Source of the DNA: an uncultured bacterium
GTDB lineage: Bacteria > JACRDZ01
Direction: 5' to 3'
DNA: 64,000 bases
Assembly: GCA_964457585.1 (NCBI GenBank)
Contig: CAYWFU010000007.1
Location: 5,275-69,274, forward strand
A model generated the notes under the pieces. That model saw only the letters and a list, made by a program, of their open reading frames with translations, was not told the origin of the DNA and did not search any database. Position 1 is the stretch's first letter. Every line of letters begins with the position of its first letter. The position numbers and the translations under genes were made by a program. Shown one piece after another: positions 22,738 through 60,120 of this stretch.

Positions 22738-23679
22738 ATGGAAACAAAAAATGATAATACAAAAAAGATGACGGTTAGCGAAACTTATAGTAAGTATGTT
22801 TTTTCAGAATGGCCTGATGTTTTGGGAGACCTGTACGCGAAATATAAAGACCGTAACCATGTCGTTACTTATAAAGGAAATATTAATAATGTATTTCGAG
22901 CTGTATTTGTGTTCGATTATTTAAAAAAATTTTTTCCTAATGGTTGCAAAGTTATCGATATTGGTTGTGGTATAGGTTATATCTCTCATTACCTGTCTAA
23001 AAATGGTTATGATGTCCATGCCTTCGACGCTAGCGATACTGGAATCTTAAAAGCTAAAGAAGTAGCGAGTCAGATCGGTATTAATCCGGATATATTTGTG
23101 TGTCATGACCATACATACCTTGAAAAAGTTCCTAGTGAATCTGTAGATGTTGCACTAGCGATGGGGTTTCTTTATTATCTGGATGAAAAGACCAGAGATT
23201 ATTGTTATAAGCAAATTAACAGAATCTTAAAGAAAAAGGGGCGTTTTTTAATGACTGGTAATAATAAATTATTTGAAGCTTTTGCTCTAAATGATACTAC
23301 ACTTAAATTTTGGGCAGAGATGATAGATGATTTTTCTCCAGTATCGAAGTTGCTTACTCCAAAAACGACTCTTGATGCTTTATGTGAAAAAGTCAAAGTA
23401 CCAAAAAGAATATTTGAAGAAAAGAGTATCAGCAAAAAATTTAAGTTACTTGAAGATAATCCGCTGACTTTCCATAAAGATTTACGTGAGTATGATTTTG
23501 AAGTTGAAGAAATACTTTATCCCGATAGTCATTTATTAATTCCCGCCCTTGAAGCTGAAGTTGATCAAGATGCTTTGTTGAAATTAAAAGCTGAATATTG
23601 TGTTCAGAAAGCCAGAGACTGGCGAGGTATATTTATGTGTTATGAATTTCTTGCCTTTATGCATAAGGGCGCTGTTTAA
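22738..23679 (+). CDS. class I SAM-dependent methyltransferase (Methyltransf_11/23-like)
   Basis: Motif I VIDIGCGIGYIS, motif post-I DVHAFDAS. Confidence 0.7.
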   Translation: METKNDNTKKMTVSETYSKYVFSEWPDVLGDLYAKYKDRNHVVTYKGNINNVFRAVFVFDYLKKFFPNGCKVIDIGCGIGYISHYLSKNGYDVHAFDASDTGILKAKEVASQIGINPDIFVCHDHTYLEKVPSESVDVALAMGFLYYLDEKTRDYCYKQINRILKKKGRFLMTGNNKLFEAFALNDTTLKFWAEMIDDFSPVSKLLTPKTTLDALCEKVKVPKRIFEEKSISKKFKLLEDNPLTFHKDLREYDFEVEEILYPDSHLLIPALEAEVDQDALLKLKAEYCVQKARDWRGIFMCYEFLAFMHKGAV

Positions 23680-23763: not shown

Positions 23764-25146
23764 ATGGTAGTAGAAAAGTATCAATTTAGTCTTGAACCAA
23801 AAAAAGTTCCACTAGTGGAAACAAAAAATCGTCGAATTAAAACAGCAATCCCTGCTCCGGGAACAAAAGAGCTTATGGAGCGAATTGCAGCTGTTGAAAG
23901 TTCCAATGCAATGGATCAGCTTCCTGTAATATGGGATAGAGCTTTAGGCCATCAGATTTTCGATCCATGGGGAAATTGTTGGATAGATTTTACATCAACT
24001 ATATTTGTGACAAATGTCGGGCATGCGCATCCATACATGAAAGAATCGATAAAAAAACAAATGGATAATCTGATGCATTCATATAGTTATCCAACTGAAA
24101 TTCGTGCTCGTTATGTTGAAAAATTAATTGCATTTACCCCTAGCAATCTTAAGAAAGCTTCTCTTTTTTCAACAGGGACAGAAGCGGTTGAAAGAGCAGT
24201 TAAGATTGCGCGGCTTTATGGCTTAAAATCTAATCCTGCACGAAAACTTATTGTTGGATGGGATGGAAATTTTCATGGTAAAACCATGGGATCTCAAATG
24301 GTTGGCGGACAGCATGCTGATAAATATTGGATAGGTTATCTTGATCCAAATATGACACATCTTCCATTTCCATTTCCATGGGTTATGGAAAAATCAGGAT
24401 TAACAGGTGAGGAGAAGTTCAAACAGGATATTAATTCATTAAAAGAAAAAGGTATTAATTTAAAAGATATAACTGCTTTTATTGTTGAAACATTTCAAGG
24501 TTGGGGTGCAGTTTTTTATCCTAAAGATTATATCCAAGCAATGAGATGCTGGGCAGATGAAAATGATGTATTATTAATATTTGATGAGATTCAAGCTGGC
24601 TTTGGTCGTACAGGACGCTTGTTTGCTTATGAACATTATGATGTGAATGCAGATGTTGTAATTTGTGGTAAAGGAATTTCAGGAAGTATTCCTCTTTCTG
24701 CTGTAATTGGCAGAGCTGATGTAATTGATCTTGATCCTGCGTATACAAGTACTCATGGCGGGCATCCTCTTGCATGTACAGCCGGACTTGCTAATATAGA
24801 AATTTTTGAAAAAGAAAATCTTATAAGTGAGTCAAAGCGAAAAGAAGGAATATTTCTTTTTGAATTAAATCGATGGAAAGAACATTTCCCAAAAAGAATA
24901 GGCAGAATTTTAGGTAAAGGAATGATTTGGGGCGTTTACATTACAACTCCTGGAGGAAAAGACGAACTCGATACTGTTTTTTGTGATAAAATTATTGAGC
25001 GCGCTTTGCAGAAAGGCGTGTTCAACATCAGAACAGGCAAGGGAACCATCAAAATAGGTCCGCCTTTAAACATTCCGGATGATGCATTGATTGAAGGTTT
25101 ACGAGTGATAGAAGAGAGTATATCCGAACTTATAAAAAATAACTAA
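23764..25146 (+). CDS. class-III PLP aminotransferase (second paralogue)
   Basis: IFDEIQAGFGRTGRLFA, CGKGISG (catalytic Lys), THGGHP; AT-III family. Confidence 0.8.
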   Translation: MVVEKYQFSLEPKKVPLVETKNRRIKTAIPAPGTKELMERIAAVESSNAMDQLPVIWDRALGHQIFDPWGNCWIDFTSTIFVTNVGHAHPYMKESIKKQMDNLMHSYSYPTEIRARYVEKLIAFTPSNLKKASLFSTGTEAVERAVKIARLYGLKSNPARKLIVGWDGNFHGKTMGSQMVGGQHADKYWIGYLDPNMTHLPFPFPWVMEKSGLTGEEKFKQDINSLKEKGINLKDITAFIVETFQGWGAVFYPKDYIQAMRCWADENDVLLIFDEIQAGFGRTGRLFAYEHYDVNADVVICGKGISGSIPLSAVIGRADVIDLDPAYTSTHGGHPLACTAGLANIEIFEKENLISESKRKEGIFLFELNRWKEHFPKRIGRILGKGMIWGVYITTPGGKDELDTVFCDKIIERALQKGVFNIRTGKGTIKIGPPLNIPDDALIEGLRVIEESISELIKNN

Positions 25147-25206
25147 TTTTGTATACTATTTTCAGCAAAATACTTACGAAATTATTATAATTATATTTTA
25201 TATTTA

Positions 25207-25568
25207 GTACTACAGCGCTATAGTGAGATAGTGCGACAGAGCGACCAATGGCATTGACACTAAATCTATTATTAAATTGAGCATTGAGCATTGACAATTG
25301 AGCATTGAGCATTAAATCATCCTTTTGCCTATTGTTTTTATGCTGTTATTAATAATTTTACATAATTTATTACATTCTTTCATAGTATAATCTATGGAAT
25401 TATTTTAGCCCTTAATGCTCAATTGTCAATGCTCAATGCTCAATCGTCAATTTAGTGTCAATGCCATTGACAGAGCGACAGCCTGCAGTATGAGATGACT
25501 AGAACTGACAATAGACACAGGCTAACTTGCATAAAACTGTCGTACTATCGCACTGTAGCGCTGTAGTA
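25207..25568. repeat. MITE-like non-coding element with 18-bp terminal inverted repeats and long internal inverted repeat of (TTGAGCA)n / ATTGACA units
   Basis: Terminal inverted repeat tactacagcgctatagtg (25209-25226) vs cactgtagcgctgtagta (25551-25568), 1 mismatch. Inner arms ~25228-25314 vs ~25411-25481 are largely reverse-complementary. TTAG directly flanks both ends. No ORF. Confidence 0.55.
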
Positions 25569-25606
25569 TTAGTATTCACATATTAATAATTAAGGAGAAT
25601 ATAGTA

Positions 25607-26995
25607 ATGAGAATTCTTTTAATAGCTTATGATAATGATTCACATATTTCGGTTTTTCCTCTCGGTTTGGCATATATAGCAGCTGTTTGTAGAAATGCAG
25701 GTCATGATGTGGTGATTTACAATCAAGATATTCATCACTGGTCTGAATCACATTTATTGGAGTTTTTGAATAAAAATAAGTTCAATGTAGTTGGGTTGGG
25801 TGTTGTAGGTGGTTATTATCAATATAGAAAATTGCTAAAAATATCAGGAGCAATTAATAAAGCAAAGAATAAACCTTTTTACATTATTGGTGGACATTGT
25901 CCCTCTCCCGATCCGGAATACTTTTTGAAAAAGACACAAGCAGATGTTGTAGTAATTGGAGAAGGTGAAAATACGATACTGGACTTGTTAAAAGTGTTAG
26001 AAGAGAAAAAAGATATATCATCTGTTGATGGAATTGCGTTTATGAAGGATGGAAGATGTTTTCAAACACCTAGACGTGCACTAATACAAGATATAGATAA
26101 TATTCCCCACCCTGCATGGGATTTATTTCCAATGGAGCACTATGTTTTATTGCGAGAAGCAAATGCCAAAAAAACCGAACGTAGTATGCATGTCTTATCA
26201 GGCAGAGGATGTATTTTTAAATGCAATTTTTGTTATAGAATGGATGAAGGTTACAGAGCAAGGTCTTCCGACGCTATAATAGAAGAAATAAGGAAATTAC
26301 AAAAAGAATATTCTATTTCATATATCGACTTCCTAGATGAACTTTTTATGGTTTCAGAAAAAAGGACAATCGAATTATGTGAGAGCTTTATTAAATCAAA
26401 GATTAAATTTAATTGGTTTTGTAGTGGGAGATTAAATTTTGCCAAGACAGATGTTCTTAAACTTATGAAAGATGCAGGATGTGTGTTTATTAATTATGGA
26501 ATTGAGTCATTAGATGAAAATGCTCTACGTGTTATGAATAAAGCTCTTACTGTTAAACAAATTATTACGGGTATTGAAAATACATTATCAGTTGGAATAA
26601 GCCCGGGTTTAAATATTATATGGGGAAATATTGGAGAAACAATTGAATCATTAAAGATGGGAGTTGATTTTTTATTAAAATATGATGACCATGCACAAAT
26701 GAGAACAATCAGGCCTGTAACACCATATCCAGGATCTCCGCTTTATTATTATGCTATTGAAAAGGGTCTATTGAAAGACTGTAAAGATTTTTATGAAAAT
26801 AAGCATATTAATTCTGATTTATTAGCAGTTAATTTTACCAATTTGACTGATGACGAATTCCATAAGGCATTATTTGAAGCAAATAAAATACTTATAAATA
26901 AGTACTATGATTCTCAAAACAAAAAAGTAATCGAAAATGCATGTAAGCTATATTTTGATAAGGATGTCTCATTCAGAGGGTTTAGACAGACTTGA
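25607..26995 (+). CDS. B12-binding-domain radical SAM enzyme (class B), paralogue 1
   Basis: N-terminal cobalamin-binding Rossmann-like domain (ILLIAY...GLGVVGG...IIGGHCPS), then SGRGCIFKCNFCYR CxxxCxxC. Confidence 0.8.
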   Translation: MRILLIAYDNDSHISVFPLGLAYIAAVCRNAGHDVVIYNQDIHHWSESHLLEFLNKNKFNVVGLGVVGGYYQYRKLLKISGAINKAKNKPFYIIGGHCPSPDPEYFLKKTQADVVVIGEGENTILDLLKVLEEKKDISSVDGIAFMKDGRCFQTPRRALIQDIDNIPHPAWDLFPMEHYVLLREANAKKTERSMHVLSGRGCIFKCNFCYRMDEGYRARSSDAIIEEIRKLQKEYSISYIDFLDELFMVSEKRTIELCESFIKSKIKFNWFCSGRLNFAKTDVLKLMKDAGCVFINYGIESLDENALRVMNKALTVKQIITGIENTLSVGISPGLNIIWGNIGETIESLKMGVDFLLKYDDHAQMRTIRPVTPYPGSPLYYYAIEKGLLKDCKDFYENKHINSDLLAVNFTNLTDDEFHKALFEANKILINKYYDSQNKKVIENACKLYFDKDVSFRGFRQT

Positions 26996-27027
26996 ATTTA
27001 GGTATAGGAATTTGAAACGCTCGATAA

Positions 27028-27055
27028 GTAGAGACGCAAAATTTTGCGTCTCTAC
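27028..27055. terminator. perfect 10-bp-stem hairpin gtagagacgc-aaaatttt-gcgtctctac, 33 bp after the stop at 26995
   Basis: Read directly from the sequence. The identical 28-mer recurs at 53954-53981, where it is followed by a T-run. Confidence 0.5.
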
Positions 27056-27129
27056 ATGAAATTTTTGTAGTTGCCTGATTTATCAGGCTTAATTTAATAT
27101 TCGAATATTTGTGAGAGGTAAATAGTAAG

Positions 27130-28341
27130 ATGGAAAAAAATATTATATTTTTTGTTATCCAATCACTTAATGATGATTATGCAAGGAAGTTTGGTTTTGA
27201 TTTACTCAAAAAAAGAGGATTTGATATATATATTTTTAATCTCTTTAATTGGATTTTCAAAAATGCCCAGGAGAAATTTCCACAACACAATAAGCTGGAA
27301 CCAATTAACGACATCAAACAGGTAAAAATTTGTAATCAAGAAGAACTATATAATGCTTTGCGTAATATAAAAGGATGGAAAGTGGTATTTTTATCTACCC
27401 CAGTGACGCCAGTCCTACTTAAAACCTTACAAAAATTGGATATTCCTTATATAATATATCCTTCTTGGGGATGTGTGCATGGAGTCCAACAAAAGAGATT
27501 TTTATTGTTGAGGGTATATAATGCTATTTCAGAGTTGTTTACATCTCCTTTGAATAGAATGCTCGCATTTGTAATACATAAGAGAACAGAATATAGTATA
27601 AAAAAATATCCTCCTACCTATACTATTACAATGTTTAAGAAAGATAATACAATAGATTTAGAAAGAACGAAAGTTATTCTTAATCATGCCTTTGATTACG
27701 ATCGCTATCTTCAAAATAAAGATAAGCCAAGACCAAAATATATTTTTGCAGGAGATTATATTTTATTATTACCTAATCATACTTGGCCTATTCATGATTA
27801 TTTAGTAGTCAAAGGAATGATAGGTAAAAGTGCAGTAACCAAAGAAGAATATCAAATTTTGATTAATCATGCATTAGACAATATTGAGAAATTAACAGGG
27901 AAAAAAATAATTATTGCAGGATATCCTAATGCGACTAAAGATGAAGATATATATGAAGGAAGACATTTTGTTCTTGGTGGAGATACGGAACAATTGGTCA
28001 AATATTCTTCCGGCGTCATGGGGCACCATACAAGCGCGTTTAATTTTGCCATAATACATAATAAACCAATACGCTTGATTAATTTTAGAATATTAAAAAA
28101 TGATAAACATTTTGATAAATCGATGAAACTTTATGAGAATGTACTTAGAACTGAAAGCAAGTATGTTGATACTTTTGAAGATTGCCATAAGCTAGTGGAA
28201 GAGGGTATGTTTGTCTATAATCGGGAATTATATAGTGAATATATGAGAAAATATGTTATTTCAGAAGATGTTGCTGCACTTCCGTTAAAGCTATACTGGG
28301 ATAGAGTGGCTGATGCGCTTGATGCTGATATAGAGGCATAA
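27130..28341 (+). CDS. hypothetical protein (possible novel GT-B-like transferase)
   Basis: 403-aa ORF with good coding character and no motif I can assign; flanked by two B12-radical-SAM genes. Confidence 0.3.
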   Translation: MEKNIIFFVIQSLNDDYARKFGFDLLKKRGFDIYIFNLFNWIFKNAQEKFPQHNKLEPINDIKQVKICNQEELYNALRNIKGWKVVFLSTPVTPVLLKTLQKLDIPYIIYPSWGCVHGVQQKRFLLLRVYNAISELFTSPLNRMLAFVIHKRTEYSIKKYPPTYTITMFKKDNTIDLERTKVILNHAFDYDRYLQNKDKPRPKYIFAGDYILLLPNHTWPIHDYLVVKGMIGKSAVTKEEYQILINHALDNIEKLTGKKIIIAGYPNATKDEDIYEGRHFVLGGDTEQLVKYSSGVMGHHTSAFNFAIIHNKPIRLINFRILKNDKHFDKSMKLYENVLRTESKYVDTFEDCHKLVEEGMFVYNRELYSEYMRKYVISEDVAALPLKLYWDRVADALDADIEA

Positions 28342-28351
28342 GGAGACAAGT

Positions 28352-30166
28352 ATGTCAGATATCGTATTTATACAATTACCCCTTTGGGGGATTGGTGTCC
28401 CGCCTCTCGGCACAGCTTTGCTGAAAAGTTATTTAAAACAGCATGGTGTGACATCTACAATATTCGATGTGAATATTCATGCTTATTCTATAAGAGGTGA
28501 AAGATTTGAAGATTATTGGGATGTGAAAAATGGGTGGAATCATGTAAGCAGCGAAGAGAAAATGGTTGAATTTTACAATAAATATAGAGCCCTATTTTCA
28601 TTTTATATAGATAAAATTGAAAAAATTAATCCACGTATTGTTGGGCTGACTATTTATTACTCTAATATGATACTTTCAAAAATATTTATCGAAGAGCTTA
28701 AAAGTAAATGTCCATTAATTAAAATTATTTTAGGCGGACCACATGCCACGGAGTTTAGTAAAGATGAACTTCTTTCATCTCCGTCAGTTGATGCTGTCAG
28801 CTTAGGTGAAGGCGAAAAAGCAATACTTGCATATTATAATGAAGTTCTTAACGAAAAGAACGAAAGCTTACCGGGCATTGCATACAAAAAAAATAATTCT
28901 GTAATCGAAGCAAAACCCATAGAATATATTAAAAATTTAGATGATCTTCCATTCCCTGATTTTGATGATTTTAATTTGTCTTTATATTTCACAGGGAGAT
29001 ATGTTTATCTACCGAGTTATATTTCAAGAGGCTGTATTAATAAATGTATTTATTGTACAGAAAGAAGCTTCATGAAGCAGTTTCGTTTTAGATCTGCTAA
29101 AAGAGTTGTTGATGAATTTGAATATTTTTTAAAGAAATATCCGGCAGTAAAAGGAATTCGAATGTGCGATAGCATAACAAACGCAAGCATTCCAATGCTT
29201 AATGAATTTTGTGATCTGATGATAGAAAAAAAGATACCTTTGAGCTGGAGTATGGAAAATGCCGCAATTCGAAAAGAAATGCGCACACCTCTTTATAAGA
29301 AACTTAAAAAAGCGGATTGTACATTAATAGGTTATGGAATGGAAACACCTTCTGAAAAATTGTTGAAAAACATTGGGAAAACACTTGCGCAAGGTGTTGA
29401 TATAGAAAAAGTATTAAAAGAAGGAAAAAAATCAGGAATACATATTAGTGTGAATATTATGTTCGGCCTTCCGGGTGAAACAGATGAAGATTTTGAAAAT
29501 CTCCTAAATTTTCTTAAAAAAAATAGAAAGTCTTTAAGTATGGTAAATCCTTCACTTAATCTTTGTGCCTTTTTTCCGGGATCATTAGGTTATAGTACTC
29601 CGGAAAAATATGAAGTTGATATGACTCATGGACCGGATTTTTGGAAGACTATTGATAATAAAAATAATTTCCCTATTAGAATGAATAGATTTGAAAAATT
29701 TATTCTAGAAGCAAAAAAAAATAAACTGGATAATTTTTTGAATGCTACGGAAATTCCAAATAAAAATCAGCGGCTATTTGAATATTATTGCGCAGTGGAA
29801 GATAAGGAAAACGCATTAAAATATTATAATTTGATATCTGAAAAGGATTTAACCGGCGAGTACACAAAACTTTATAATAAACTTAACGGAGATAATAGTT
29901 CTAATGATTTGACATATGTTGTTTCAAATTTTATTCAATCTCTTAATAGTAAAGAAAGAGATGTTGCAATTAGACAATCCTTAAGCTGGCTTATAAGTGA
30001 GTATGAGAAGAAAGGTATATTTTTAGAAAATACATGGTCAAAAGATATTCATCCAATTAAAGCACGTATAAGGGATTTGATTCATAGAGCAATAGGAATT
30101 CATTATATTGAAAAAAGAATTAACGGCGTTCTTGAGATTTTAAAAATTGCAAACAGACAAGAATGA
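28352..30166 (+). CDS. B12-binding-domain radical SAM enzyme, paralogue 2 (long form, 604 aa)
   Basis: VFIQLPLWGIGVPPLG..., ILGGPHAT B12 domain; ISRGCINKCIYCTE cluster motif; extra ~150-aa C-terminal extension. Confidence 0.8.
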   Translation: MSDIVFIQLPLWGIGVPPLGTALLKSYLKQHGVTSTIFDVNIHAYSIRGERFEDYWDVKNGWNHVSSEEKMVEFYNKYRALFSFYIDKIEKINPRIVGLTIYYSNMILSKIFIEELKSKCPLIKIILGGPHATEFSKDELLSSPSVDAVSLGEGEKAILAYYNEVLNEKNESLPGIAYKKNNSVIEAKPIEYIKNLDDLPFPDFDDFNLSLYFTGRYVYLPSYISRGCINKCIYCTERSFMKQFRFRSAKRVVDEFEYFLKKYPAVKGIRMCDSITNASIPMLNEFCDLMIEKKIPLSWSMENAAIRKEMRTPLYKKLKKADCTLIGYGMETPSEKLLKNIGKTLAQGVDIEKVLKEGKKSGIHISVNIMFGLPGETDEDFENLLNFLKKNRKSLSMVNPSLNLCAFFPGSLGYSTPEKYEVDMTHGPDFWKTIDNKNNFPIRMNRFEKFILEAKKNKLDNFLNATEIPNKNQRLFEYYCAVEDKENALKYYNLISEKDLTGEYTKLYNKLNGDNSSNDLTYVVSNFIQSLNSKERDVAIRQSLSWLISEYEKKGIFLENTWSKDIHPIKARIRDLIHRAIGIHYIEKRINGVLEILKIANRQE

Positions 30167-40987: not shown

Positions 40988-42430
40988 TTGAACATATTGT
41001 TCATATATTCATTGCAAGATGCGAGATCTTCTCAAAAACCTTTACAGAATCAAGGGCAGATGCAGTTTGGTATATCATATATATCAGCTTTTTTAAAAAA
41101 ACATCGACATAATACAAAATTACTTGTTTTAAACAGAGAAGCAAAAAAAGAAAAAATAGCAGCGGTAATTAGAGAATTTAAACCGAGGTTGATATGCTTT
41201 TCTACGGTAACAATTGAGTTTGAATTTATAACTCAAATTGCTAAAGATATTAAGAAAAATTTTCCTGATATTTTTTTGCTGATTGGAGGAGTTCATGTTT
41301 CTTTAAATCCTTCGGAAAAGATGCTTGAAGTTTTTGATGCATTATGTATCGGAGAAGGAGAGTATCCAACTTTTGAATTAATCGAACAATTAGAAAAAGG
41401 GTTTTTCCCTTCAAAAATTTTAAATCTTTGGATAAAAAATAAATCAGAAATAGAAAAAAATAAAACACGACCTTTTTACCAAAATTTGGATGAATTGCCT
41501 TTTCCTGATAGAGATATATGGATGGATTGGATACAAGAACCAACAACAGGGTATACTATTCTTCTTGGACGAGGGTGCCCTTTTATTTGTGCTTATTGTT
41601 CAAATCATGCTATAAGAAGATTAAGTGACGGAAAATATGTTAGACAGAGATCGTCTGAAAATATTATCGGTGAATTGAAAGAACTAACAGATAAGATTCC
41701 TTCCATAAAAAATATTTATCTTGAAGTTGAAACTTTTGGCGCAAATAAAAAGTGGGCTATTGATTTATGTGAAAAATTAAGAGATTTTAATAAAAACAAC
41801 AAAAAAGAAATTTTTTTTGGAACGAATTTACGAGTGACACCTAATAAAGATTATGATCAACTTTTTGCAGAGTTGAAAAAAAGCAATTTTACTTTTATTA
41901 ATATTGGGCTAGAATCCGGTAGTGAAAGAGTTCGGCGAGAAGTGCTGAAAAGAAATTATTCAAATGAAGATATTATTAAAGCTGTTTCATCCGGTAGAAA
42001 ACATGGATTGAAAATCAAATTTTTTAATTTAATTGGTATTCCTGGTGAAACTTATAATGATTTTATGGAAACCGTGAAAATGAATAGAATTTGTTTGCCT
42101 GACACGAATTATTTATCTATATTTTTCCCATATCCGGGAACCTCATTACATAAGTTATGTATAGAGCAAGGACTAATAACAAATAAACTTGATACTCAAA
42201 TGGAAAGAAGAAGGTCAACATTAAATTTACCTGACTTTAGTAAAAAACAGATTCAAACGTGTTTTGTATGGTTTGAATACTATGCGTTTAAAGGATGTAA
42301 GCCGATATATAAAATATTATCCAAAGTTATGGTGAATAAAATTCATTCTAATTATTATTTGAATTTATGTTATAGAAGGTTAACATCGTTAACTTTTTTT
42401 AAAATTTTGAAAAAAAGTTTACAATCATAA
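40988..42430 (+). CDS. B12-binding-domain radical SAM enzyme, paralogue 3
   Basis: LLIGGVHVS, GEGE B12-domain features; GRGCPFICAYCSNHA cluster motif; TTG start with AGGAG 8 nt upstream. Confidence 0.8.
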   Translation: MNILFIYSLQDARSSQKPLQNQGQMQFGISYISAFLKKHRHNTKLLVLNREAKKEKIAAVIREFKPRLICFSTVTIEFEFITQIAKDIKKNFPDIFLLIGGVHVSLNPSEKMLEVFDALCIGEGEYPTFELIEQLEKGFFPSKILNLWIKNKSEIEKNKTRPFYQNLDELPFPDRDIWMDWIQEPTTGYTILLGRGCPFICAYCSNHAIRRLSDGKYVRQRSSENIIGELKELTDKIPSIKNIYLEVETFGANKKWAIDLCEKLRDFNKNNKKEIFFGTNLRVTPNKDYDQLFAELKKSNFTFINIGLESGSERVRREVLKRNYSNEDIIKAVSSGRKHGLKIKFFNLIGIPGETYNDFMETVKMNRICLPDTNYLSIFFPYPGTSLHKLCIEQGLITNKLDTQMERRRSTLNLPDFSKKQIQTCFVWFEYYAFKGCKPIYKILSKVMVNKIHSNYYLNLCYRRLTSLTFFKILKKSLQS

Positions 42431-46343: not shown

Positions 46344-46424
46344 AGTGTCAGAGAGTCAAAGTGTCAGAATAAAATCTCAAAATTCCTTTGCTCTGACTCT
46401 CTGACACTTTGACTCTCTGACACT
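46344..46424. repeat. perfect 25-bp inverted repeat (agtgtcagagagtcaaagtgtcaga / tctgacactttgactctctgacact) with 31-bp spacer
   Basis: Read directly; arms at 46344-46368 and 46400-46424. An SD-led 21-codon ORF (46339-46404) runs across it. The motif ctctgacac recurs at 55921-55942. Confidence 0.7.
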
Positions 46425-46442
46425 TATCCCTAAGGAGAATAT

Positions 46443-47427: not shown

Positions 47428-48921
47428 ATGAGAATTTTACTGATAGATCCTCCTACTAATTGTTTTACCGGGCTTATGAAAAGGGGCTATCCAATTGGAT
47501 TATGCATGCTTGCTGCTGTAGCTAAAAATGAAGGAATCCAGGATGTAAGTGTTTATGATGTAGATAAGTCTTTGCCTCCTACATATGGTCTGAATTTCAG
47601 CAATCAAAAACAAAATATGGCTCGTTTTCTCGATGGAGTAAATAATCTTGATCATCCTGTTTGGAAAAGCATAAGCCAAACACTTGATTCCTTTAAACCG
47701 GATATTGTTGGTATAACCACAATGACGATACAGTATGCTGCGGCAATGCGTGTTGCTCAAACAGTTAAATCATGGGACAAAAAGTGTCCTGTTATTGTGG
47801 GAGGCGCTCATACCAGCGTAATGCCCATCAGTACAATTGAATGGCCTTATATTGATATGATAGTCAAAGGAGAGGGAGAGGAAGCTTTTAGGCAAATTAT
47901 TCAAAGATTAAAAGATGGGCAGACAGATATGTCTGATATACATGGAGTTATAACCAAAAGTAATGCTTCTATGACAAATATACCGCCAATTGAAATTTCT
48001 GATTTAGATATTCTTCCTATCCCGGCAAGAGAAATGCTTATGCATAAAGAGCGCTATACTCCTGAAGATTTGGCATTGATTTTGACTTCACGCGGTTGCC
48101 CTTATCATTGCAGTTATTGCAGTAATTTTTCAAGAAAAACGCGTTTTAGATCAATCGAAAATGTAATTAATGAAATTGAGATTGTTAAGAATAAATATAA
48201 CGCTTCGCAATTTATGTTTAAGGATGATTCTTTTTCTTTAAGACGTAACCGAGTTGAAGAATTTTGTCGAAAACTTCATGAAAAGAAATTGGATATAAAT
48301 TGGGAGTGTACAACGCGTCTTGACTTGTTAGATGATAGTCTTGTTAAAATGATGATGTCCGCAGGGTGTAATCGTATAGGTGTAGGTGTTGAATCCGGCG
48401 ATGAACAAATGCTTCAAATCTATAGTAAGAGACTTACAAAGGATCAGATACGAAAAGGAGCAAAAATATTAAATGCCAATAAAATGTTTTGGACTGCTTA
48501 TTTTATGATGGGATTGCCAATGGAAAGTGAACAGCAGATTTATAGTACCATTGGTTTTATGAAAGAAATAAAACCTTCATATGCAGCAATAGGTATTTAT
48601 AAACCTTATCCTGGCACAAAACTTTTTGATATGGCTGCTGATCTGGGATTGGTAGATGCTAATGTGCCGAATGAACACTTTTTAAATACAAATCCAGTGG
48701 ACTATTTTTTCAAAGATGCAGGTAAAAGATGCGCTTATATCTCTCTAGACAAACTGACAGAATTAACCTGTTTTATGGAACAAGAATTTGAAAAGTATAA
48801 TAAAAAATTTTCAAAAATATTTAAACGAGCAATTTCAAGATATAAATTGTATTTATCTGACTATAAGAGCTTTACTACGGATATAAAAAGGATTATTAGA
48901 TGGTATATTCCTAAAACATAG
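47428..48921 (+). CDS. B12-binding-domain radical SAM enzyme, paralogue 4
   Basis: MRILLIDPP... (same N-terminus style as paralogue 1), VIVGGAHTS, GEGEE; SRGCPYHCSYCSN cluster motif. Confidence 0.8.
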   Translation: MRILLIDPPTNCFTGLMKRGYPIGLCMLAAVAKNEGIQDVSVYDVDKSLPPTYGLNFSNQKQNMARFLDGVNNLDHPVWKSISQTLDSFKPDIVGITTMTIQYAAAMRVAQTVKSWDKKCPVIVGGAHTSVMPISTIEWPYIDMIVKGEGEEAFRQIIQRLKDGQTDMSDIHGVITKSNASMTNIPPIEISDLDILPIPAREMLMHKERYTPEDLALILTSRGCPYHCSYCSNFSRKTRFRSIENVINEIEIVKNKYNASQFMFKDDSFSLRRNRVEEFCRKLHEKKLDINWECTTRLDLLDDSLVKMMMSAGCNRIGVGVESGDEQMLQIYSKRLTKDQIRKGAKILNANKMFWTAYFMMGLPMESEQQIYSTIGFMKEIKPSYAAIGIYKPYPGTKLFDMAADLGLVDANVPNEHFLNTNPVDYFFKDAGKRCAYISLDKLTELTCFMEQEFEKYNKKFSKIFKRAISRYKLYLSDYKSFTTDIKRIIRWYIPKT

Positions 48922-51249: not shown

Positions 51250-51323
51250 AGTATAGGAATTTCATTTGACTTTTTTAAAAAATAAATGATATATTTGATT
51301 GTAAATAATGGAGGTATGTTAAA

Positions 51324-52586: not shown

Positions 52587-53957
52587 ATGTTATTAAAACG
52601 TTTATCTAAAAAAATGGCTTTGGTTTTTTTAGGTGATATCTTTTTAATATTATTTGCTCAATATTTAAATGATCTACTATTTTTAAAATTTACTTCAAGA
52701 CCAATCCCCGCAAGTTTTGACATGTTATTTGTTACTGCAATTTTCTGCTTTATTTTTTATATTTTTGATTTACATGATCCAAATATAAGTTTTAAAGGTA
52801 CGCGTTTTTTTACTAAATTTTTAATTGCAATTCTAATTAGCAGCGGGATTGTCTCAATTAGTTTTTATTTTAGATTTTCATTAGAATATGGACGGATAAT
52901 ATTTCTTTCCAGTGTGATATTAATAGGATTTTTAACTTATACATGGCGTTTATTTTTGAATAAATATTTTAGAGAATTAACTCCTGAAAAAAAAATTATT
53001 ATTGTTGGTGCAGGACGTGCCGGATTAGCAATGTATAAAACATTAAAAGGGAGAAGATTTTATAAAGTAGTTGGTTTCCTTGATGATGACGAAGAAAAAA
53101 TTGGTAAAGTAATGGGCTCACCGCAAGTTATAGGAAATACTTATTTAATGAATGATATAATTAATAGTCGTAAAGCGGATATTTTAATCCTCGCAATTAC
53201 ACATCAAAAAAATCCTGAAATTTTTAAAATTATGCTTGACGCTAAAATGAAAGGTATTGATGTTTATGATATGCCGACATTCTATGAAATAGTTAATTGC
53301 GAAGTTCCTGTTGAGCATATCAAGGATTCGTGGTTTGTTTATACTGAGCTGTCAGGTGTAAAGGTTGGGATTTATAATCGTCATATTAAAAGGATTTTAG
53401 ATATTTTATTATCCTTTTTTCCTTTGATATTAACCTTGCCTGTTACAGTTGTAACCGCATTATTAATAAAATTGGATTCAGCAGGCCCAATATTTTATAT
53501 TCAGGAAAGAGTTGGATTAAATAATAAAATATTTAAGATAATAAAATTCCGTTCAATGAAAAAAAATGCGGAAACGAATGGGGCTGTTTGGGCACAAGAA
53601 AATGATTCCAGAGTAACAAATATTGGTAAAATAATCAGGAAATTGCGTATTGATGAAATACCGCAATGCTGGAATGTTTTAAAAGGTGATATGAGTTTTA
53701 TTGGTCCAAGACCTGAAAGATCAGAATTTATTGAACACCTGTCGAAAGAAATACCATATTATACCTTAAGGCATTATGTTCGTCCAGGGATTACTGGCTG
53801 GGCACAGGTAAATTATCATTACGGAGCATCAAAAGAAGATGCATTGAAAAAATTACAATACGATTTATATTATATAAAAAATTTGTCATTTGTTATAGAT
53901 TTACATATTTTATTAAAGACAGTCAAAGTAATATTATGGGGTAAAGGATCAAGGTAG
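52587..53957 (+). CDS. undecaprenyl-phosphate hexose-1-phosphate transferase (WbaP/bacterial sugar transferase family), initiating enzyme
   Basis: Four N-terminal TM helices plus Rossmann-like linker; C-terminal catalytic domain KIIKFRSM, IDEIPQCWNVLKGDMSFIGPRPE. Confidence 0.85.
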   Translation: MLLKRLSKKMALVFLGDIFLILFAQYLNDLLFLKFTSRPIPASFDMLFVTAIFCFIFYIFDLHDPNISFKGTRFFTKFLIAILISSGIVSISFYFRFSLEYGRIIFLSSVILIGFLTYTWRLFLNKYFRELTPEKKIIIVGAGRAGLAMYKTLKGRRFYKVVGFLDDDEEKIGKVMGSPQVIGNTYLMNDIINSRKADILILAITHQKNPEIFKIMLDAKMKGIDVYDMPTFYEIVNCEVPVEHIKDSWFVYTELSGVKVGIYNRHIKRILDILLSFFPLILTLPVTVVTALLIKLDSAGPIFYIQERVGLNNKIFKIIKFRSMKKNAETNGAVWAQENDSRVTNIGKIIRKLRIDEIPQCWNVLKGDMSFIGPRPERSEFIEHLSKEIPYYTLRHYVRPGITGWAQVNYHYGASKEDALKKLQYDLYYIKNLSFVIDLHILLKTVKVILWGKGSR

Positions 53958-53981
53958 AGACGCAAAATTTTGCGTCTCTAC
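53954..53981. terminator. bidirectional rho-independent terminator: hairpin gtagagacgc-aaaatttt-gcgtctctac followed by TTTTTATTTTT
   Basis: Overlaps the TAG stop of the 52587 gene and the stop of the convergent minus-strand gene (53978); T-run downstream. Confidence 0.8.
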
Positions 53982-55867: not shown

Positions 55868-55944
55868 ATATTTATCTCAGGAAATTGGAAATTGAATGTT
55901 AAAGTACTATGGTACTTATTCTCTGACACTCTGACTCTTTGAAA

Positions 55945-58900
55945 CTATTCTTTAATCTGAACAGGTATTTCTTTCCATGCGGAACCATTTCCCAGTTGTC
56001 CAAATCCATTATATCCCCAGCTCCAGACTGAACCATCTGATTTTAAAGCTAATGAATGATATGCTCCAGCAGAGATTGCTATCCAGTTATTATCATTATT
56101 AATCTGAATAGGGATATTTTTTCCTTCTATGGAATCATTCCCTAATTGTCCGTACCAGTTATATCCCCATGCCCATAATGTTCCATCTGATTTCAAAGCT
56201 AATGAATGTTCCCTGCCGGCAGAAATTGCTATCCAGTCATTATCAGCATTGATTTGAATAGGAGATGCATTATCTTCATTAGTATTGTCTCCAAGTTGAC
56301 CATAAAGATTTTTCCCCCATGCCCATAATGTTCCATCTGATTTCAAAGCCAATGTATAGTTACCTCCGGCAGAAATTGCTGTCCAATTATTATCGCCAAT
56401 TTGAACAGGAGAATTACTATCTTCATGATTATTTATACCTAACTGTCCAAATTCATTATTCCCCCATGCCCAGAGGGAGCTATCTGATTTTATTGCTATT
56501 GTATGATACTCTCCGGCAGAAATAATGCTCCATTTATTATCAATACCAACCATAACGGGTAAGTTTTTATTTACAAAAGATCCTTCGCCAAGTTGTCCGT
56601 AACTATTATTCCCCCATGCCCATAATGTTCCATCTGTTTTTATTGCTAATGAATGATACCATCCGGAAAAAGTTGATTCCCATTCATTAATTCCAGTCTT
56701 AATTGGAGTATCGCTGTTTTCATTTGTCCCATCACCTAATTGTCCGAATTCATTATCCCCCCATGCCCATAATGTTTTATCTGATTTTAATGCTAATATG
56801 TTATATACCCCTGTAGATATAGTTTGCCAGTCGCTTTCAGTATTAAATAATGTTAGATTATTTAAATTTTTTCCCGTATTATTCCCCATTTGCCCATATA
56901 AATTATTGCCGCTTACCCATAAAGTATTATCCATTTTTAATAAAATAGTATGATACCCGCCAGCATAAATTGCTTTCCAGTTATAATCAAAATTAATTAA
57001 ATTTGGTATATTTTTTGTTTTGTCAGCCATTTGTCCATATCTATTATCACCCCACGCCCAAAGTGATTTATCTGATTTTAATGCTATAGTATAATATCCG
57101 CCTGCATAAATTGATATCCAATTATTGTTATCATCAATTTTTGTTGGTATTTTTTTATTTATTGTCGAATTGTCGCCAAGTTGCCCAAATTCATTATTCC
57201 CCCAAGCCCAGATTGTGCCATCAGATTTTAACGCGACGGTATGATATATTCCGGCAGATATTACTATCCAATTGCTATCAGTACCAATTTGAACCGGACT
57301 ATTTTTATTTTCATTTGTACCAATCCCCAATTGCCCAAATTCATTATTCCCCCAAGCCCAGATTGTACTATCTGATTTCAAAGCAATAGAATGGTATTCT
57401 CCCAGTGAAACTGCTGCCCATTTTCCAGCAGCATTTACTTTTGCTGGTTTGTTTTTTTCTATATTTGTTCCATCTCCCAATTGTCCATATTCATTCGTTC
57501 CCCACATCCATAATGTATTATCCGATTTTATTGCAGCACTGTGTTTTTTCCCTGTAGAAATTGTTCTCCAATCCGGACTTGTACTTATTTTTGTTGGAAT
57601 ATTTCTATTTATTCGGGTCCCATCGCCTAATTGACTATATTGATTATTTCCCCATGCCCATAATGTACTATCAGATTTTATTGCTATTGTATGTGTTTCA
57701 CCGGCTGATATTTTTATCCATTTATCATTCCCAATTTGAACAGGTTCAAGACGGCTCATTTCCGAAACATTCCCTAATTGACCAAATTCATTATCCCCCC
57801 ATGCCCATAAAGTATTGTCAGATTTTATCACAATTGTATAAGCTTCACCTGCGGATATTTCTATCCAATCATATATGTTATCTAAAAGAGAAACTTTATT
57901 TATTTTTTCTGTGATATAACTATTTACCTGCCCGTCTTTATTGTATCCCCAGCCCCATAAAGAGCTGTCAGATTTTATAGCTAAAATATGATAATGACCA
58001 GCAGAAATTTTTTCCCATAAAATAAATCTTTCCGTATTAAATTTTATTGAATAATCTGTATTTAATGAATTTCCTGATAAATCTTTTATCCTGGTAGTAA
58101 TTGTAATCGTATATTTTGAACTATGTGTAAGTATTGTATCAGGAATGAATGTAATAGAAGTTTCATTTGAAATAATCGTACCGGAAATAACTGAATTATT
58201 AATGTCTTTAACAAAGAAAGTTGCTTTATTAATTGTTGATACCTCAATAGGTTCAGAAAAAAAAGCTTCAATTTTTGAATCAATAGCAATATTTATAGCA
58301 TTATTTTCCGGAGTTGTTGATATAACTTCAGGCGGTGTTGTATCCTTAATTCTGCCGGTATTAAATGTAAAAATATAAGCGGTTTTAAGATTGTTTTCTG
58401 ATAAATCTTTTATATCAGTGGTAATTGTAACAATATATTTTGAATCAGGAATAAGATCTTCATTTGATATAAAAGTAGCTGTTGTTCCGCTGTAAGTGAC
58501 TGTACCAATAGTGAGAGCATTATCAATATCTCTTTTTATCTGAAATGTCGCAGTTGTGATTGTGGATATATTAATTGATTCAGAAAAAGTAGCTGTGATT
58601 CGTGTATTAAAGGGTAAATTTGAATCCCCGCTTTCCGGAGTTGTTGATATAACTTCAGGCGGAGTTGTATCTGATATAGACCCTGTAGTAAATGACCATA
58701 CATAATCAGTTCCCATTTCATTGCCAGATAAATCTTTTACCTTTGCAGTGATTGCTGCTGTATATATAGTATCTGCTTCAAAATTCTCTTCTGGAATAAA
58801 TGTTAATGTTGTTCCATTATACATAATTATCCCGGCAACAGGATAATTATCAATATTTTTTATAATTTGGAATGTTTCTGAACTGATTGTTGAAATGTCC

Positions 58901-60120
58901 ATTGGTTCTGAAAATAGCGCAGAAATATTTGTACTGAACGATATATCAATAGCTTTATTTTCTGGACTTGTTTGTATGATTTGAGGTGGAATAGTATCAG
59001 TAATCAAACCTATTGTAAATGACCATTTATAGTTTTCTATTAATGTATTACCTGATAAATCTTTTATATTTTTTGAAATAATAGCAGTATATACTACACC
59101 GGGAATAAGGTCATTTTCAGGTATGAAAGTTATTGTTGTTCCATAATATTTAACTGTCCCTTTAATTGGAAGAAAATCAATATTACTAATAACCTGAAAT
59201 ACATCATTGGTAATTGTCGATACATCTATTTGTTCTGTAAAAATTGCTACAATGTTCGTGCTAATTGGTACATTAATAGCGTCTTTTTCAGGAGTTGTTA
59301 ATGTTATTTTGAGTGGTACGATATCAATATTTAAACCTGTTGTAAATGACCATGAATATGATTCTAAAAGTGAATTACCAGATAAATCTTTTATTTCCGT
59401 TGTAAGAGTTGCTGTATATTGTGTATTATAAGACATATTATTTTGGGGAATGAATGTCGCTGTATTTTCATTGTATATAATTTCTCCTGAAATAGTGGCG
59501 CTGCCTGATATATTTACTATTTTAAATGTTTCTGAATTAAGTGTTGTTTTATCTATTGGTTCAGAAAACATTACAGTAATTTTTGTGTTCAAAGGGACAT
59601 CAACTGTACCATTTAATGGGTTTGTTAATATAATTTGCGGAGGAATAAGATCAGGAATAGAAACAGCGCCGGTGGTAAATTTAAAAATATAATCAGATTT
59701 TAAATAATTTCCTGATTTATCTTTTATTTTTGAAGTTATTGTAACAGAATACTGTGTAGCAGGAGTTAATTCAGGATTTGATGCAAATTCAGCAATTGTA
59801 TTACTATATATAATTTCTCCCTGAACAAATGATGAATCTGATAAATTCATCACTTTAAATGTATCAGAAGTGATGGTTGTTGAATCAATTGATTCAGAAA
59901 ATGTTATAGTTATTTTAGTATTAATAGGTATATCTGTTGAATTATCTGCCGGGCTTGTTGCTATTATATAAGGAGCTGTGGTATCGAGTAAAGGTTTAAT
60001 TGAATCTGTGTGTTTTTTAGATTTGGATTTTCCAATGCATGAAAAAGCAAAAATAAAAAAAATAATAAATAGAATATTGATAATTTTATACAAAAATTTA
60101 AAATTATAATTTGGTATCAT
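55945..60120 (-). CDS. large secreted/surface protein: signal-anchor + 6 tandem SbsA-type Ig-like (Big_5) repeats + 14-blade RCC1-like beta-propeller
   Basis: N-terminal hydrophobic IINILFIIFFIFAFSCIG. Six ~108-aa repeats (T.PP.IISTTPEN.AINI....I.A.FSEPID.STI...TF.V.......GT..Y.GTT.TFIP...L.....YT.TIT..IKDLSGN.L...Y.W.FTTG). Then 14 repeats of LW[AG]WG.N.[FY]GQLG.G. Confidence 0.85.
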   Translation of the reverse strand: MIPNYNFKFLYKIINILFIIFFIFAFSCIGKSKSKKHTDSIKPLLDTTAPYIIATSPADNSTDIPINTKITITFSESIDSTTITSDTFKVMNLSDSSFVQGEIIYSNTIAEFASNPELTPATQYSVTITSKIKDKSGNYLKSDYIFKFTTGAVSIPDLIPPQIILTNPLNGTVDVPLNTKITVMFSEPIDKTTLNSETFKIVNISGSATISGEIIYNENTATFIPQNNMSYNTQYTATLTTEIKDLSGNSLLESYSWSFTTGLNIDIVPLKITLTTPEKDAINVPISTNIVAIFTEQIDVSTITNDVFQVISNIDFLPIKGTVKYYGTTITFIPENDLIPGVVYTAIISKNIKDLSGNTLIENYKWSFTIGLITDTIPPQIIQTSPENKAIDISFSTNISALFSEPMDISTISSETFQIIKNIDNYPVAGIIMYNGTTLTFIPEENFEADTIYTAAITAKVKDLSGNEMGTDYVWSFTTGSISDTTPPEVISTTPESGDSNLPFNTRITATFSESINISTITTATFQIKRDIDNALTIGTVTYSGTTATFISNEDLIPDSKYIVTITTDIKDLSENNLKTAYIFTFNTGRIKDTTPPEVISTTPENNAINIAIDSKIEAFFSEPIEVSTINKATFFVKDINNSVISGTIISNETSITFIPDTILTHSSKYTITITTRIKDLSGNSLNTDYSIKFNTERFILWEKISAGHYHILAIKSDSSLWGWGYNKDGQVNSYITEKINKVSLLDNIYDWIEISAGEAYTIVIKSDNTLWAWGDNEFGQLGNVSEMSRLEPVQIGNDKWIKISAGETHTIAIKSDSTLWAWGNNQYSQLGDGTRINRNIPTKISTSPDWRTISTGKKHSAAIKSDNTLWMWGTNEYGQLGDGTNIEKNKPAKVNAAGKWAAVSLGEYHSIALKSDSTIWAWGNNEFGQLGIGTNENKNSPVQIGTDSNWIVISAGIYHTVALKSDGTIWAWGNNEFGQLGDNSTINKKIPTKIDDNNNWISIYAGGYYTIALKSDKSLWAWGDNRYGQMADKTKNIPNLINFDYNWKAIYAGGYHTILLKMDNTLWVSGNNLYGQMGNNTGKNLNNLTLFNTESDWQTISTGVYNILALKSDKTLWAWGDNEFGQLGDGTNENSDTPIKTGINEWESTFSGWYHSLAIKTDGTLWAWGNNSYGQLGEGSFVNKNLPVMVGIDNKWSIISAGEYHTIAIKSDSSLWAWGNNEFGQLGINNHEDSNSPVQIGDNNWTAISAGGNYTLALKSDGTLWAWGKNLYGQLGDNTNEDNASPIQINADNDWIAISAGREHSLALKSDGTLWAWGYNWYGQLGNDSIEGKNIPIQINNDNNWIAISAGAYHSLALKSDGSVWSWGYNGFGQLGNGSAWKEIPVQIKE
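55948..58020. repeat. 14 ~150-bp degenerate tandem coding repeats (RCC1 blades)
   Basis: Recurrent ccatgcccataatgt / ccaagcccagattgt / attattcccccatgccca segments on the + strand every ~150 bp (the reverse complement of WAWGNNE...). Confidence 0.7.
58020..59985. repeat. six ~325-bp degenerate tandem coding repeats (Big_5/SbsA Ig-like modules) inside the 55945..60120 gene
   Basis: Protein-level periodicity mapped back to DNA. Generates a ladder of out-of-frame ORFs on the + strand (58145, 59207, 59450 ...). Confidence 0.7.

Follow-up and report, generated by a model that had tools for sequence, protein, structure and literature searches.

A putative miniature transposable element nested within a second palindrome in the polysaccharide locus of an uncultured bacterium

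A 64-kb stretch of contig CAYWFU010000007.1 from an uncultured low-GC bacterium (hereafter the window, numbered from its first letter) carries a polysaccharide locus of ~30% GC, and a 361-bp nested inverted repeat (25208-25568) occupies the sole long gap of the ~54-kb polysaccharide operon in it. Our analysis suggests that this structure probably consists of two non-coding palindromic elements, one within the other, in which a miniature inverted-repeat transposable element (MITE) has inserted into an outer palindrome. The inner unit of 224 bp is most likely a MITE of a previously unseen family. The outer unit, made up of 25208-25245 together with 25480-25568, is either an older MITE, with a 4-bp duplication, of which a single copy is left, or a native intercistronic hairpin like a second palindrome found at 46344-46424. 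Elements of this kind are already known and are ordinary selfish DNA, and the finding opens no new question in the field; it does define the ends (CAATGGCATTGACACTAAAT, with a 10-bp duplication) of a MITE family and of its presumed parent, an element like insertion sequence (IS) 4, which are absent from the collections searched. It also offers a worked example of how a nested palindrome can be resolved as a miniature transposon inserted in another palindromic element.

Transposition signature of the inner unit

The evidence for transposition lies at the ends of the inner unit. Its two 20-bp terminal repeats (25246-65 and 25450-69) are complementary at 20 of 20 positions, and an identical 10-mer, ACAGAGCGAC, abuts both of them in direct orientation. 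In a pure palindrome this 10-mer would be inverted, which argues that it is a target-site duplication generated by transposition. Based on an estimated per-base match rate, the chance of a 10-nt match is ~0.33^10, or ~1e-5. Among the 23 maximal perfect inverted repeats in the window (12 nt or longer), only this one is abutted by a 10-nt direct repeat; the runners-up have abutting direct repeats of 5 nt (A/T-only) and 4 nt (the TTAG of the outer unit).

The overall architecture is consistent with insertion into a pre-existing palindrome. Alignment of the left arm to the right arm in reverse complement reveals an asymmetry, in that 67 nt of the right arm have no counterpart on the left, and this excess is accounted for if the inner unit and its 10-bp direct repeat were inserted in the left shoulder of the outer palindrome. 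Excision of 25246-25479 restores a clean 127-nt palindrome that has 32-nt ends and TTAG on both sides, and the restored sequence forms one hairpin along its full length (-64.9 kcal/mol, z = -11.0). The inner unit also folds strongly when taken alone (-91.6 kcal/mol, z = -14.2). The units differ in composition, with a GC content of 46% in the outer unit, 29% in the inner unit and 15-18% in the spacer flanks. After subtraction of both units and one TTAG, the gap comes to 95 nt, which is the usual size for this locus, such that the outer palindrome sits in an otherwise ordinary intergenic spacer.

The initial annotation of this DNA had described a single MITE-like element at 25207-25568, located in the only long non-coding stretch of the locus. 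The gap in question (25147-25606, 460 nt) is indeed the largest in the window, followed by gaps of 164, 134, 134, and 132 nt, and it is the longest non-coding stretch within a run of ~50 same-strand genes. The 18-bp terminal inverted repeats described there, TACTACAGCGCTATAGTG (25208-25225) and CACTGTAGCGCTGTAGTA (25551-25568), pair with one mismatch (two matches to this end with at most three mismatches, compared to 0.01 expected by chance), and we find that these arms reach 32 nt, of which 29 are paired. TTAG was also correctly noted as abutting both termini, for which we estimate a chance of ~0.012; the outer unit thus has both terminal inverted repeats and a 4-bp flanking repeat. The inner repeat of heptamers was recovered as well, as a second internal inverted repeat of 41-43 nt (86-90%) built of ATTGAGC/ATTGACA units (25273-315 / 25412-454), which surrounds the AT-rich core with its TATAAT. 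Folding of both strands, which the annotation had suggested, gave structures far more stable than shuffled controls for the 460-nt gap (+ strand, -171 kcal/mol, z = -13.6; - strand, -157.8 kcal/mol, z = -12.6). The assignment to MITEs thus holds in kind, given the terminal repeats, the flanking duplications, the lack of a gene, and the strong hairpin, but the anatomy of one element with its mobility resting on TTAG does not, as the strong transposition signature belongs to 25246-25469, a unit that had not been delimited.

The absence of coding capacity likewise stands in substance. Open reading frames (ORFs) located wholly within the inner unit reach at most 31 aa, and a 60-aa antisense ORF called on the source contig (P0127), which lies over the left half and spans the inner left end, had no homolog among 5.8 billion protein clusters. 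A small-peptide or type I toxin function was considered and rejected, as the core ORFs (21 aa, hydrophobic, and 23 aa, basic) have no ribosome-binding site and show the composition that AT-rich sequence gives. We also rejected a replication origin with iterons (21-bp units beside an AT-rich core), given that the cumulative GC skew is unchanged across the site.

Under the MITE interpretation, the 20-bp ends of the inner unit would be bound by a DDE transposase encoded elsewhere in the genome, which would cut the target with a 10-bp stagger, and repair of the staggered cuts would then duplicate ACAGAGCGAC. The end sequence together with the one-helix-turn length of the duplication suggests that this enzyme may be of the IS4 family. 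Duplications in this family are ~10 bp, with a range of 8-13 bp, and the published end signatures are CA------T with an 8-10 bp duplication for IS4Sa, -AATR--------WTW with a 10-13 bp duplication for IS4, and CAT-------AA--TAA for the IS231 subgroup (PMC2266710). Like these elements, the inner unit has a 10-bp duplication and a 20-bp terminal repeat that starts with CA; its end, CAATGGCATTGACACTAAAT, fits the IS4Sa signature at 3/3 positions and that of IS4 at 6/7, although such signatures carry little information. Compared with IS4-family insertion sequences and their miniature derivatives (IS231 and MIC231 are examples), it differs in that no transposase gene accompanies it in the window, and its end does not fit the IS231 signature. 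For the outer end, the IS701 signature agrees at 6/7 positions and the 4-bp duplication has the matching length, a weaker fit than that of the inner end to IS4. Before an insertion of the outer unit, the empty site would have read ...TATATTTAGTATTCAC...

Copy number and searches for relatives

The Logan assemblies, which were constructed with k=31, include a run of the same strain (SRR12113406) and provided an independent reconstruction of the locus. Three Logan contigs compared with the window showed one mismatch in about 11,000 positions, and the contig that reaches the element (L001) showed none. L001 ends at 25275, which equals 25246 + 29 and is therefore 30 nt inside the inner unit. Its left neighbor (L101) extends to 23546 and L001 begins at 23518; this 29-nt overlap indicates that contigs are left untrimmed and continue for 30 nt into a node, a single 31-mer, that they share. 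By the same 30-nt overrun, the branching node that stops L001 starts at 25246, exactly where the inner terminal repeat begins, as would be expected if further copies of the inner unit, joined to another left flank, were present in the sample. An exact 31-nt inverted repeat within the inner unit (starting at 25276) was examined as a cause of this stop and rejected, since it would end the contig at 25305 instead of 25275. L001 passes through the outer arm (25208-25245) unbranched, and thus only one copy of the outer unit exists in that sample. Contig ends in a k-mer assembly can reveal repeat boundaries to the base. The 31-mer at 23517-23547, which lies in a methyltransferase gene, is itself a branching Logan node; that it stops both L101 and L001 implies its recurrence elsewhere in that metagenome.

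Searches with the outer end yielded no relatives. Across 185,579 species-representative genomes, the outer 18-mer had three matches (L002-L004) that share only the 18-mer, compared to ~35 expected by chance, and its nine matches in metagenomes (L054-L062) were all single-ended and unrelated. A 24-mer of the outer end had no matches in metagenomes, the outer end had none in viral contigs, and BLASTN searches of the whole element against plasmids and phages returned nothing. Two metagenome contigs were evaluated as second copies of the outer unit and rejected. The first, L062 (31% GC), is rich in CTATAG, compositionally odd, and has no second end; the second, L058 (ERZ1740059 NODE-61022), is an 11-unit tandem octamer array that lacks an inverted partner. 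The eleven octamers of L058 are of the NTACAGNG type (ATACAGTG, CTACAGCG and similar), and these are the units that compose the outer 32-nt ends.

The heptamers of the inner arms were rejected as a family marker. Tandem (ATTGAGC)n arrays are present in 29 IMG/VR viral contigs (L010-L038) of 36-69% GC, mostly in intergenic positions, but they represent a recurrent simple repeat, with shuffled-heptamer controls giving comparable counts (23 and 14 contigs, rarely as arrays). The copy number of these arrays varies from 2 to ~11 among closely related low-GC phage contigs (L016, L019, L023-26, L030, L038). In some high-GC contigs (L011, L029, L032, and L035) opposed arrays form hairpins, sometimes next to gene starts, and this recurrence could, though quite improbably, point to an undescribed class of "heptamer-armed" hairpins that is shared across lineages.

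Several points weigh against the reading of an inner MITE in an outer palindrome. A second copy of the inner unit was not seen directly in viral contigs, plasmids, phages, the window, or the fetched loci; the inner 20-mer end had no matches in viral contigs, with the genome and metagenome scans having used the outer end only, and only generic heptamer tracts turned up in the remainder of the window and in 0.92 Mb of fetched loci. A same-locus variant that starts exactly at 25276, or a chance dead end in coverage, would produce the same end of L001, and both are possible explanations that would require a one-in-thousands coincidence. The outer unit was single-copy wherever tested (genomes, metagenomes, viral contigs, and the k=31 contig), which counts against a MITE origin of this unit. 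The presumed IS4-like parentage of the inner unit is a lead drawn from a short signature and the duplication length. Lastly, as far as function is concerned, the regulatory effects of the RNA hairpin and the promoters are only predicted, by analogy with other elements.

Table 1 Coordinates of the nested palindrome, its component parts, and neighboring genes in the window.
Feature	Position	Strand	Remarks
Class-III aminotransferase gene	23764-25146		Upstream neighbor of gap
TTAG, left copy of outer 4-bp direct repeat	25204-25207		Read from sequence
Left outer terminal inverted repeat, 32 nt	25208-25239		Octamers CTACAGCG CTATAGTG AGATAGTG CGACAG; 29/32 with right arm
ACAGAGCGAC, left copy of putative 10-bp target-site duplication	25236-25245		Within outer unit; identical to 25470-25479; abuts inner terminal repeat
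Inner MITE-like unit, 224 bp, 29% GC	25246-25469		Supported by ends, duplication, fold, GC, and the end of L001
Left inner terminal inverted repeat, CAATGGCATTGACACTAAAT	25246-25265		100% complementary to 25450-25469
Left subterminal heptamer array	25276-25315		ATTGAGC x2, ATTGACA, ATTGAGC x2; stops in all three + frames; contains TTGACA
Exact 31-nt inverted repeat within heptamer arrays	25276-25306 / 25414-25444
Rightward sigma70-like site, TTGACA-18-AATCAT	25291-25320	+	10/12; consensus match only
AT-rich core, 96 nt, 23% GC	25316-25411		TATAAT at 25386-25391
Leftward sigma70-like site, TTGACA-16-TAAAAT	25402-25429	-	11/12; antisense to operon
Right subterminal heptamer array	25412-25452		Inverted partner of 25276-25315
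Right inner terminal inverted repeat	25450-25469
ACAGAGCGAC, right copy of putative 10-bp target-site duplication	25470-25479
Central segment of outer unit ("right-arm-only")	25480-25536		Own small hairpin, AGCCTG 25480-85 / CAGGCT 25518-23
Right outer terminal inverted repeat, 32 nt	25537-25568
TTAG, right copy of outer 4-bp direct repeat	25569-25572
B12 radical-SAM gene	25607-26995		Downstream neighbor of gap; strong AAGGAG ribosome-binding site
Four B12-binding radical-SAM genes	25607-26995, 28352-30166, 40988-42430, 47428-48921

Alternative explanations and comparison with known systems

The alternative that survives best is a native origin, in which the palindrome arose at this site as a regulatory structure, either an intercistronic hairpin or a promoter/terminator cassette that punctuates the operon, with nothing mobile about it. 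We consider this unlikely for the structure as a whole. A hairpin formed in place would not be expected to have a perfect 20-bp inverted repeat with a 10-bp direct repeat immediately at its ends, and the k=31 break at the first base of the inner unit points to a copy elsewhere. Although both strands fold very strongly and an 11/12 sigma70-like site is present, the components of a cassette are lacking: 25147-25606 contains no intrinsic terminator (a G+C-rich stem followed by a T run), the sole + strand terminator site of the scanned region 24800-27400 being at 27073-27088; the TATAAT at 25386-91 has no -35 hexamer at a usable spacing; and the site most like a promoter is oriented away from the downstream genes. 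In addition, no similarity to the element was seen in the gaps (78-342 nt, including one in a Kuenenia contig) that precede the closest radical-SAM homologs (75-78% identity), and the element appears from these comparisons not to be a conserved leader of the radical-SAM gene. The suggestion in the initial annotation that a terminator-promoter cassette divides the operon into two transcription units is thus poorly supported, and no such cassette is present in the homologous gene contexts.

For the outer 127-bp unit alone, the same explanation fares considerably better, and we regard it as a serious possibility with a somewhat less than even chance. It is favored by the single-copy state of the outer unit in every search, by the unbranched passage of L001, by the presence of a second octamer-built palindrome in the same window, and by the position of both palindromes just upstream of an identical 12-mer (TAAGGAGAATAT) and a start codon. 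The second palindrome (46344-46424) is intergenic and has perfect 25-nt arms of octamers AGTGTCAG AGAGTCAA AGTGTCAG around a 31-nt spacer; it has a folding energy of -48.1 kcal/mol (z = -7.7) and no flanking duplication, and a half-copy of its octamers is located at 55920-55944. This palindrome was not found in viral contigs, where the octamer probe CTCTGACACTTTGACTC gave one chance match within a coding region. The 12-mer comprises a ribosome-binding site and spacer and occurs in the 64 kb only at 25591-25602 and 46431-46442, each time directly downstream of a large intergenic palindrome. The heptamer CTGACAC occurs eight times in the window, compared to 1.6 expected.

Another possibility, which we judge quite improbable, is that the inner unit serves as a mobile regulatory cassette, in which the opposed heptamer arrays would bind a trans-acting factor and the converging promoters and core would act as a switch or antisense module. 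The two inner sigma70-like sites (leftward 11/12, rightward 10/12) do converge on the core. The region shows no excess of promoter-like matches (15 found vs 14.4 expected), nor does the window as a whole for matches of at least 11/12 (5 vs 5.8 expected). Only two matches of at least 11/12 in the 64 kb are intergenic; one is the leftward site, and the other is in a genuine divergent promoter region before gene 60253.

An inverton, in which a recombinase would flip the segment between the inverted repeats and so make the downstream half of the polysaccharide locus phase-variable, is less probable still. Inverted repeats around a few hundred bp in a surface-polysaccharide locus fit this idea, as would the leftward TTGACA-16-TAAAAT site, which would face the downstream genes after a flip, and inversion has been reported for Correia elements (PMC10969869). 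However, no tyrosine or serine recombinase is encoded in the 64 kb, roughly three quarters of the segment is palindromic such that a flip would change little, the flanking direct repeat is a mark of transposition, and the promoter-like matches show no excess over expectation. A mixture of orientations would also branch the contig at ~25239 or 25265, and L001 runs past both. Least credible of all is a chimeric fold-back palindrome produced by assembly or amplification, a known class of artefact among long palindromes for which the metagenome-assembled source without close relatives leaves some room, given that the left flank, the outer arm, and the opening 30 nt of the inner unit came out free of mismatches from an independent assembler, that the asymmetry, imperfect arms, and unique core are unlike fold-back chimeras, and that gene order is colinear on both sides.

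Among known systems, the proposed inner MITE most readily bears comparison with other bacterial MITEs. Prokaryotic MITEs have been described with sigma70-like promoters, RNase III cleavage at the terminal repeats, copy numbers down to one per genome, and insertion into each other (PMC10969869). Like the Neisseria Correia elements, ERIC, and MITEAba12, the structure described here is small and non-coding, with terminal inverted repeats and a putative target-site duplication, and it lies between operon genes with sigma70-like hexamers and a predicted long hairpin if transcribed; nesting and low copy number are also documented for MITEs (PMC10969869). It differs in having no sequence similarity to any searchable element and in its arms of reiterated 7-mers (inner unit) and 8-mers (outer unit), and multiple copies are in this case suggested by a break in the assembly graph. 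The inner duplication is 10 bp, whereas that of Correia elements is TA.

Other repeat classes share fewer features. REP, REPIN, and BIME sequences are likewise intergenic, hairpin-forming, and found within operons, but REPs are 20-40 nt long, depend on RAYT transposases, and have no target duplications. The present units, at 127 and 224 bp, are longer and carry both terminal repeats and flanking direct repeats. Invertible promoters, such as those of Bacteroides PS loci and fimS, resemble the structure in being inverted-repeat-bounded segments of a few hundred bp in a surface-polysaccharide locus with an internal promoter-like site, but the present segment has no neighboring recombinase gene, is palindromic over most of its interior, and has a flanking 10-bp direct repeat, and the independent assembly gives no indication of both orientations. 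Intergenic repeats of the heptamer TAACTGA occur in Beggiatoaceae, Cyanobacteria, and Bacteroidetes (PMC4679880). The inner-unit arms are tandem heptamers as well, but of another sequence and with only 2+1+2 units, arranged as opposed arrays in a bounded element. The cyanobacterial STRR is another intergenic heptamer direct repeat.

Genomic setting, predicted effects, and minor observations

The locus encodes Wzi, Wzz, a Wzy-like polymerase, glycosyltransferases, and a priming sugar transferase, together with two NeuB-type nonulosonate synthases, cytidylyltransferases, several aminotransferases, and four B12-binding radical-SAM enzymes. Every window protein tested was a singleton at 90% identity, present on a single NCBI contig of 76.6 kb, which indicates that the host has no close sequenced relative. 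No transposase, integrase, invertase, or tyrosine or serine recombinase was detected among the 56 ORFs of the window, and such genes may be located elsewhere in the genome. Rfam yielded no matches at gathering score in the 64 kb, with the best E-values in the gap (1.4 and 2.8) falling far below threshold, and no tRNA or tmRNA genes were found.

The radical-SAM protein adjacent to the gap has homologs of 70-78% identity across Brocadiaceae, Nitrospirae, Omnitrophica, Clostridia, and other lineages, and this similarity between distant lineages indicates a gene, likely for sugar modification, that has been widely exchanged. The closest homologs of the aminotransferase (79% and 75%) and of the radical-SAM protein (75-78%) are found in differently arranged loci. 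A comparison with an empty site or orthologous locus was therefore set aside, as no matching arrangement occurs among the loci of the closest homologs. In four of these loci (L045-L048) three further genes separate the aminotransferase and radical-SAM genes, which suggests that the junction in the window is a rearranged joint of a mosaic locus. The element would thus mark a rearranged junction in the mosaic polysaccharide locus of an uncultured low-GC bacterium.

As no terminator was found in the gap, transcription of the operon probably continues through the element. A transcript that reads through the gap would be expected to fold into a very long hairpin with perfect or near-perfect helices of 20-40 bp. 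The hairpins of Correia elements are cut by RNase III at the terminal repeats (PMC10969869), and by analogy the predicted hairpin may serve as an RNase III substrate or as a barrier to exonucleases, which could uncouple the stability of the upstream and downstream message. The inner unit would also bring in sigma70-like promoters that face its core. If the element is transcribed through, the hairpin of ~360 nt and the promoters could alter the expression of the two halves of the 54-kb surface-sugar operon.

Several other repeats were observed in the window. A 28-nt perfect palindrome, GTAGAGACGCAAAATTTTGCGTCTCTAC, occurs twice, at 27028-27055 (after the radical-SAM gene) and at 53954-53981 (the convergent end of the locus). 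It is present in exact form in five IMG/VR contigs of 40-56% GC (L039-L043), with three copies in L043 and a neighboring variant with the same stem and a different loop in L040. Its sequence (5' GTAG ... CTAC 3') and distribution suggest a REP-like hairpin common to very different genomes. The sequence GTATAGGAATTT directly follows the stop codons of the radical-SAM and UDP-GlcNAc 2-epimerase genes (27002-27013 and 51251-51262) and occurs nowhere else in the window. Lastly, a protein of 1391 aa with RCC1-like and Big_5 Ig-like repeats is encoded on the - strand at 55945-60120, and its DNA shows tandem periodicities of 150, 297, and 327 nt.

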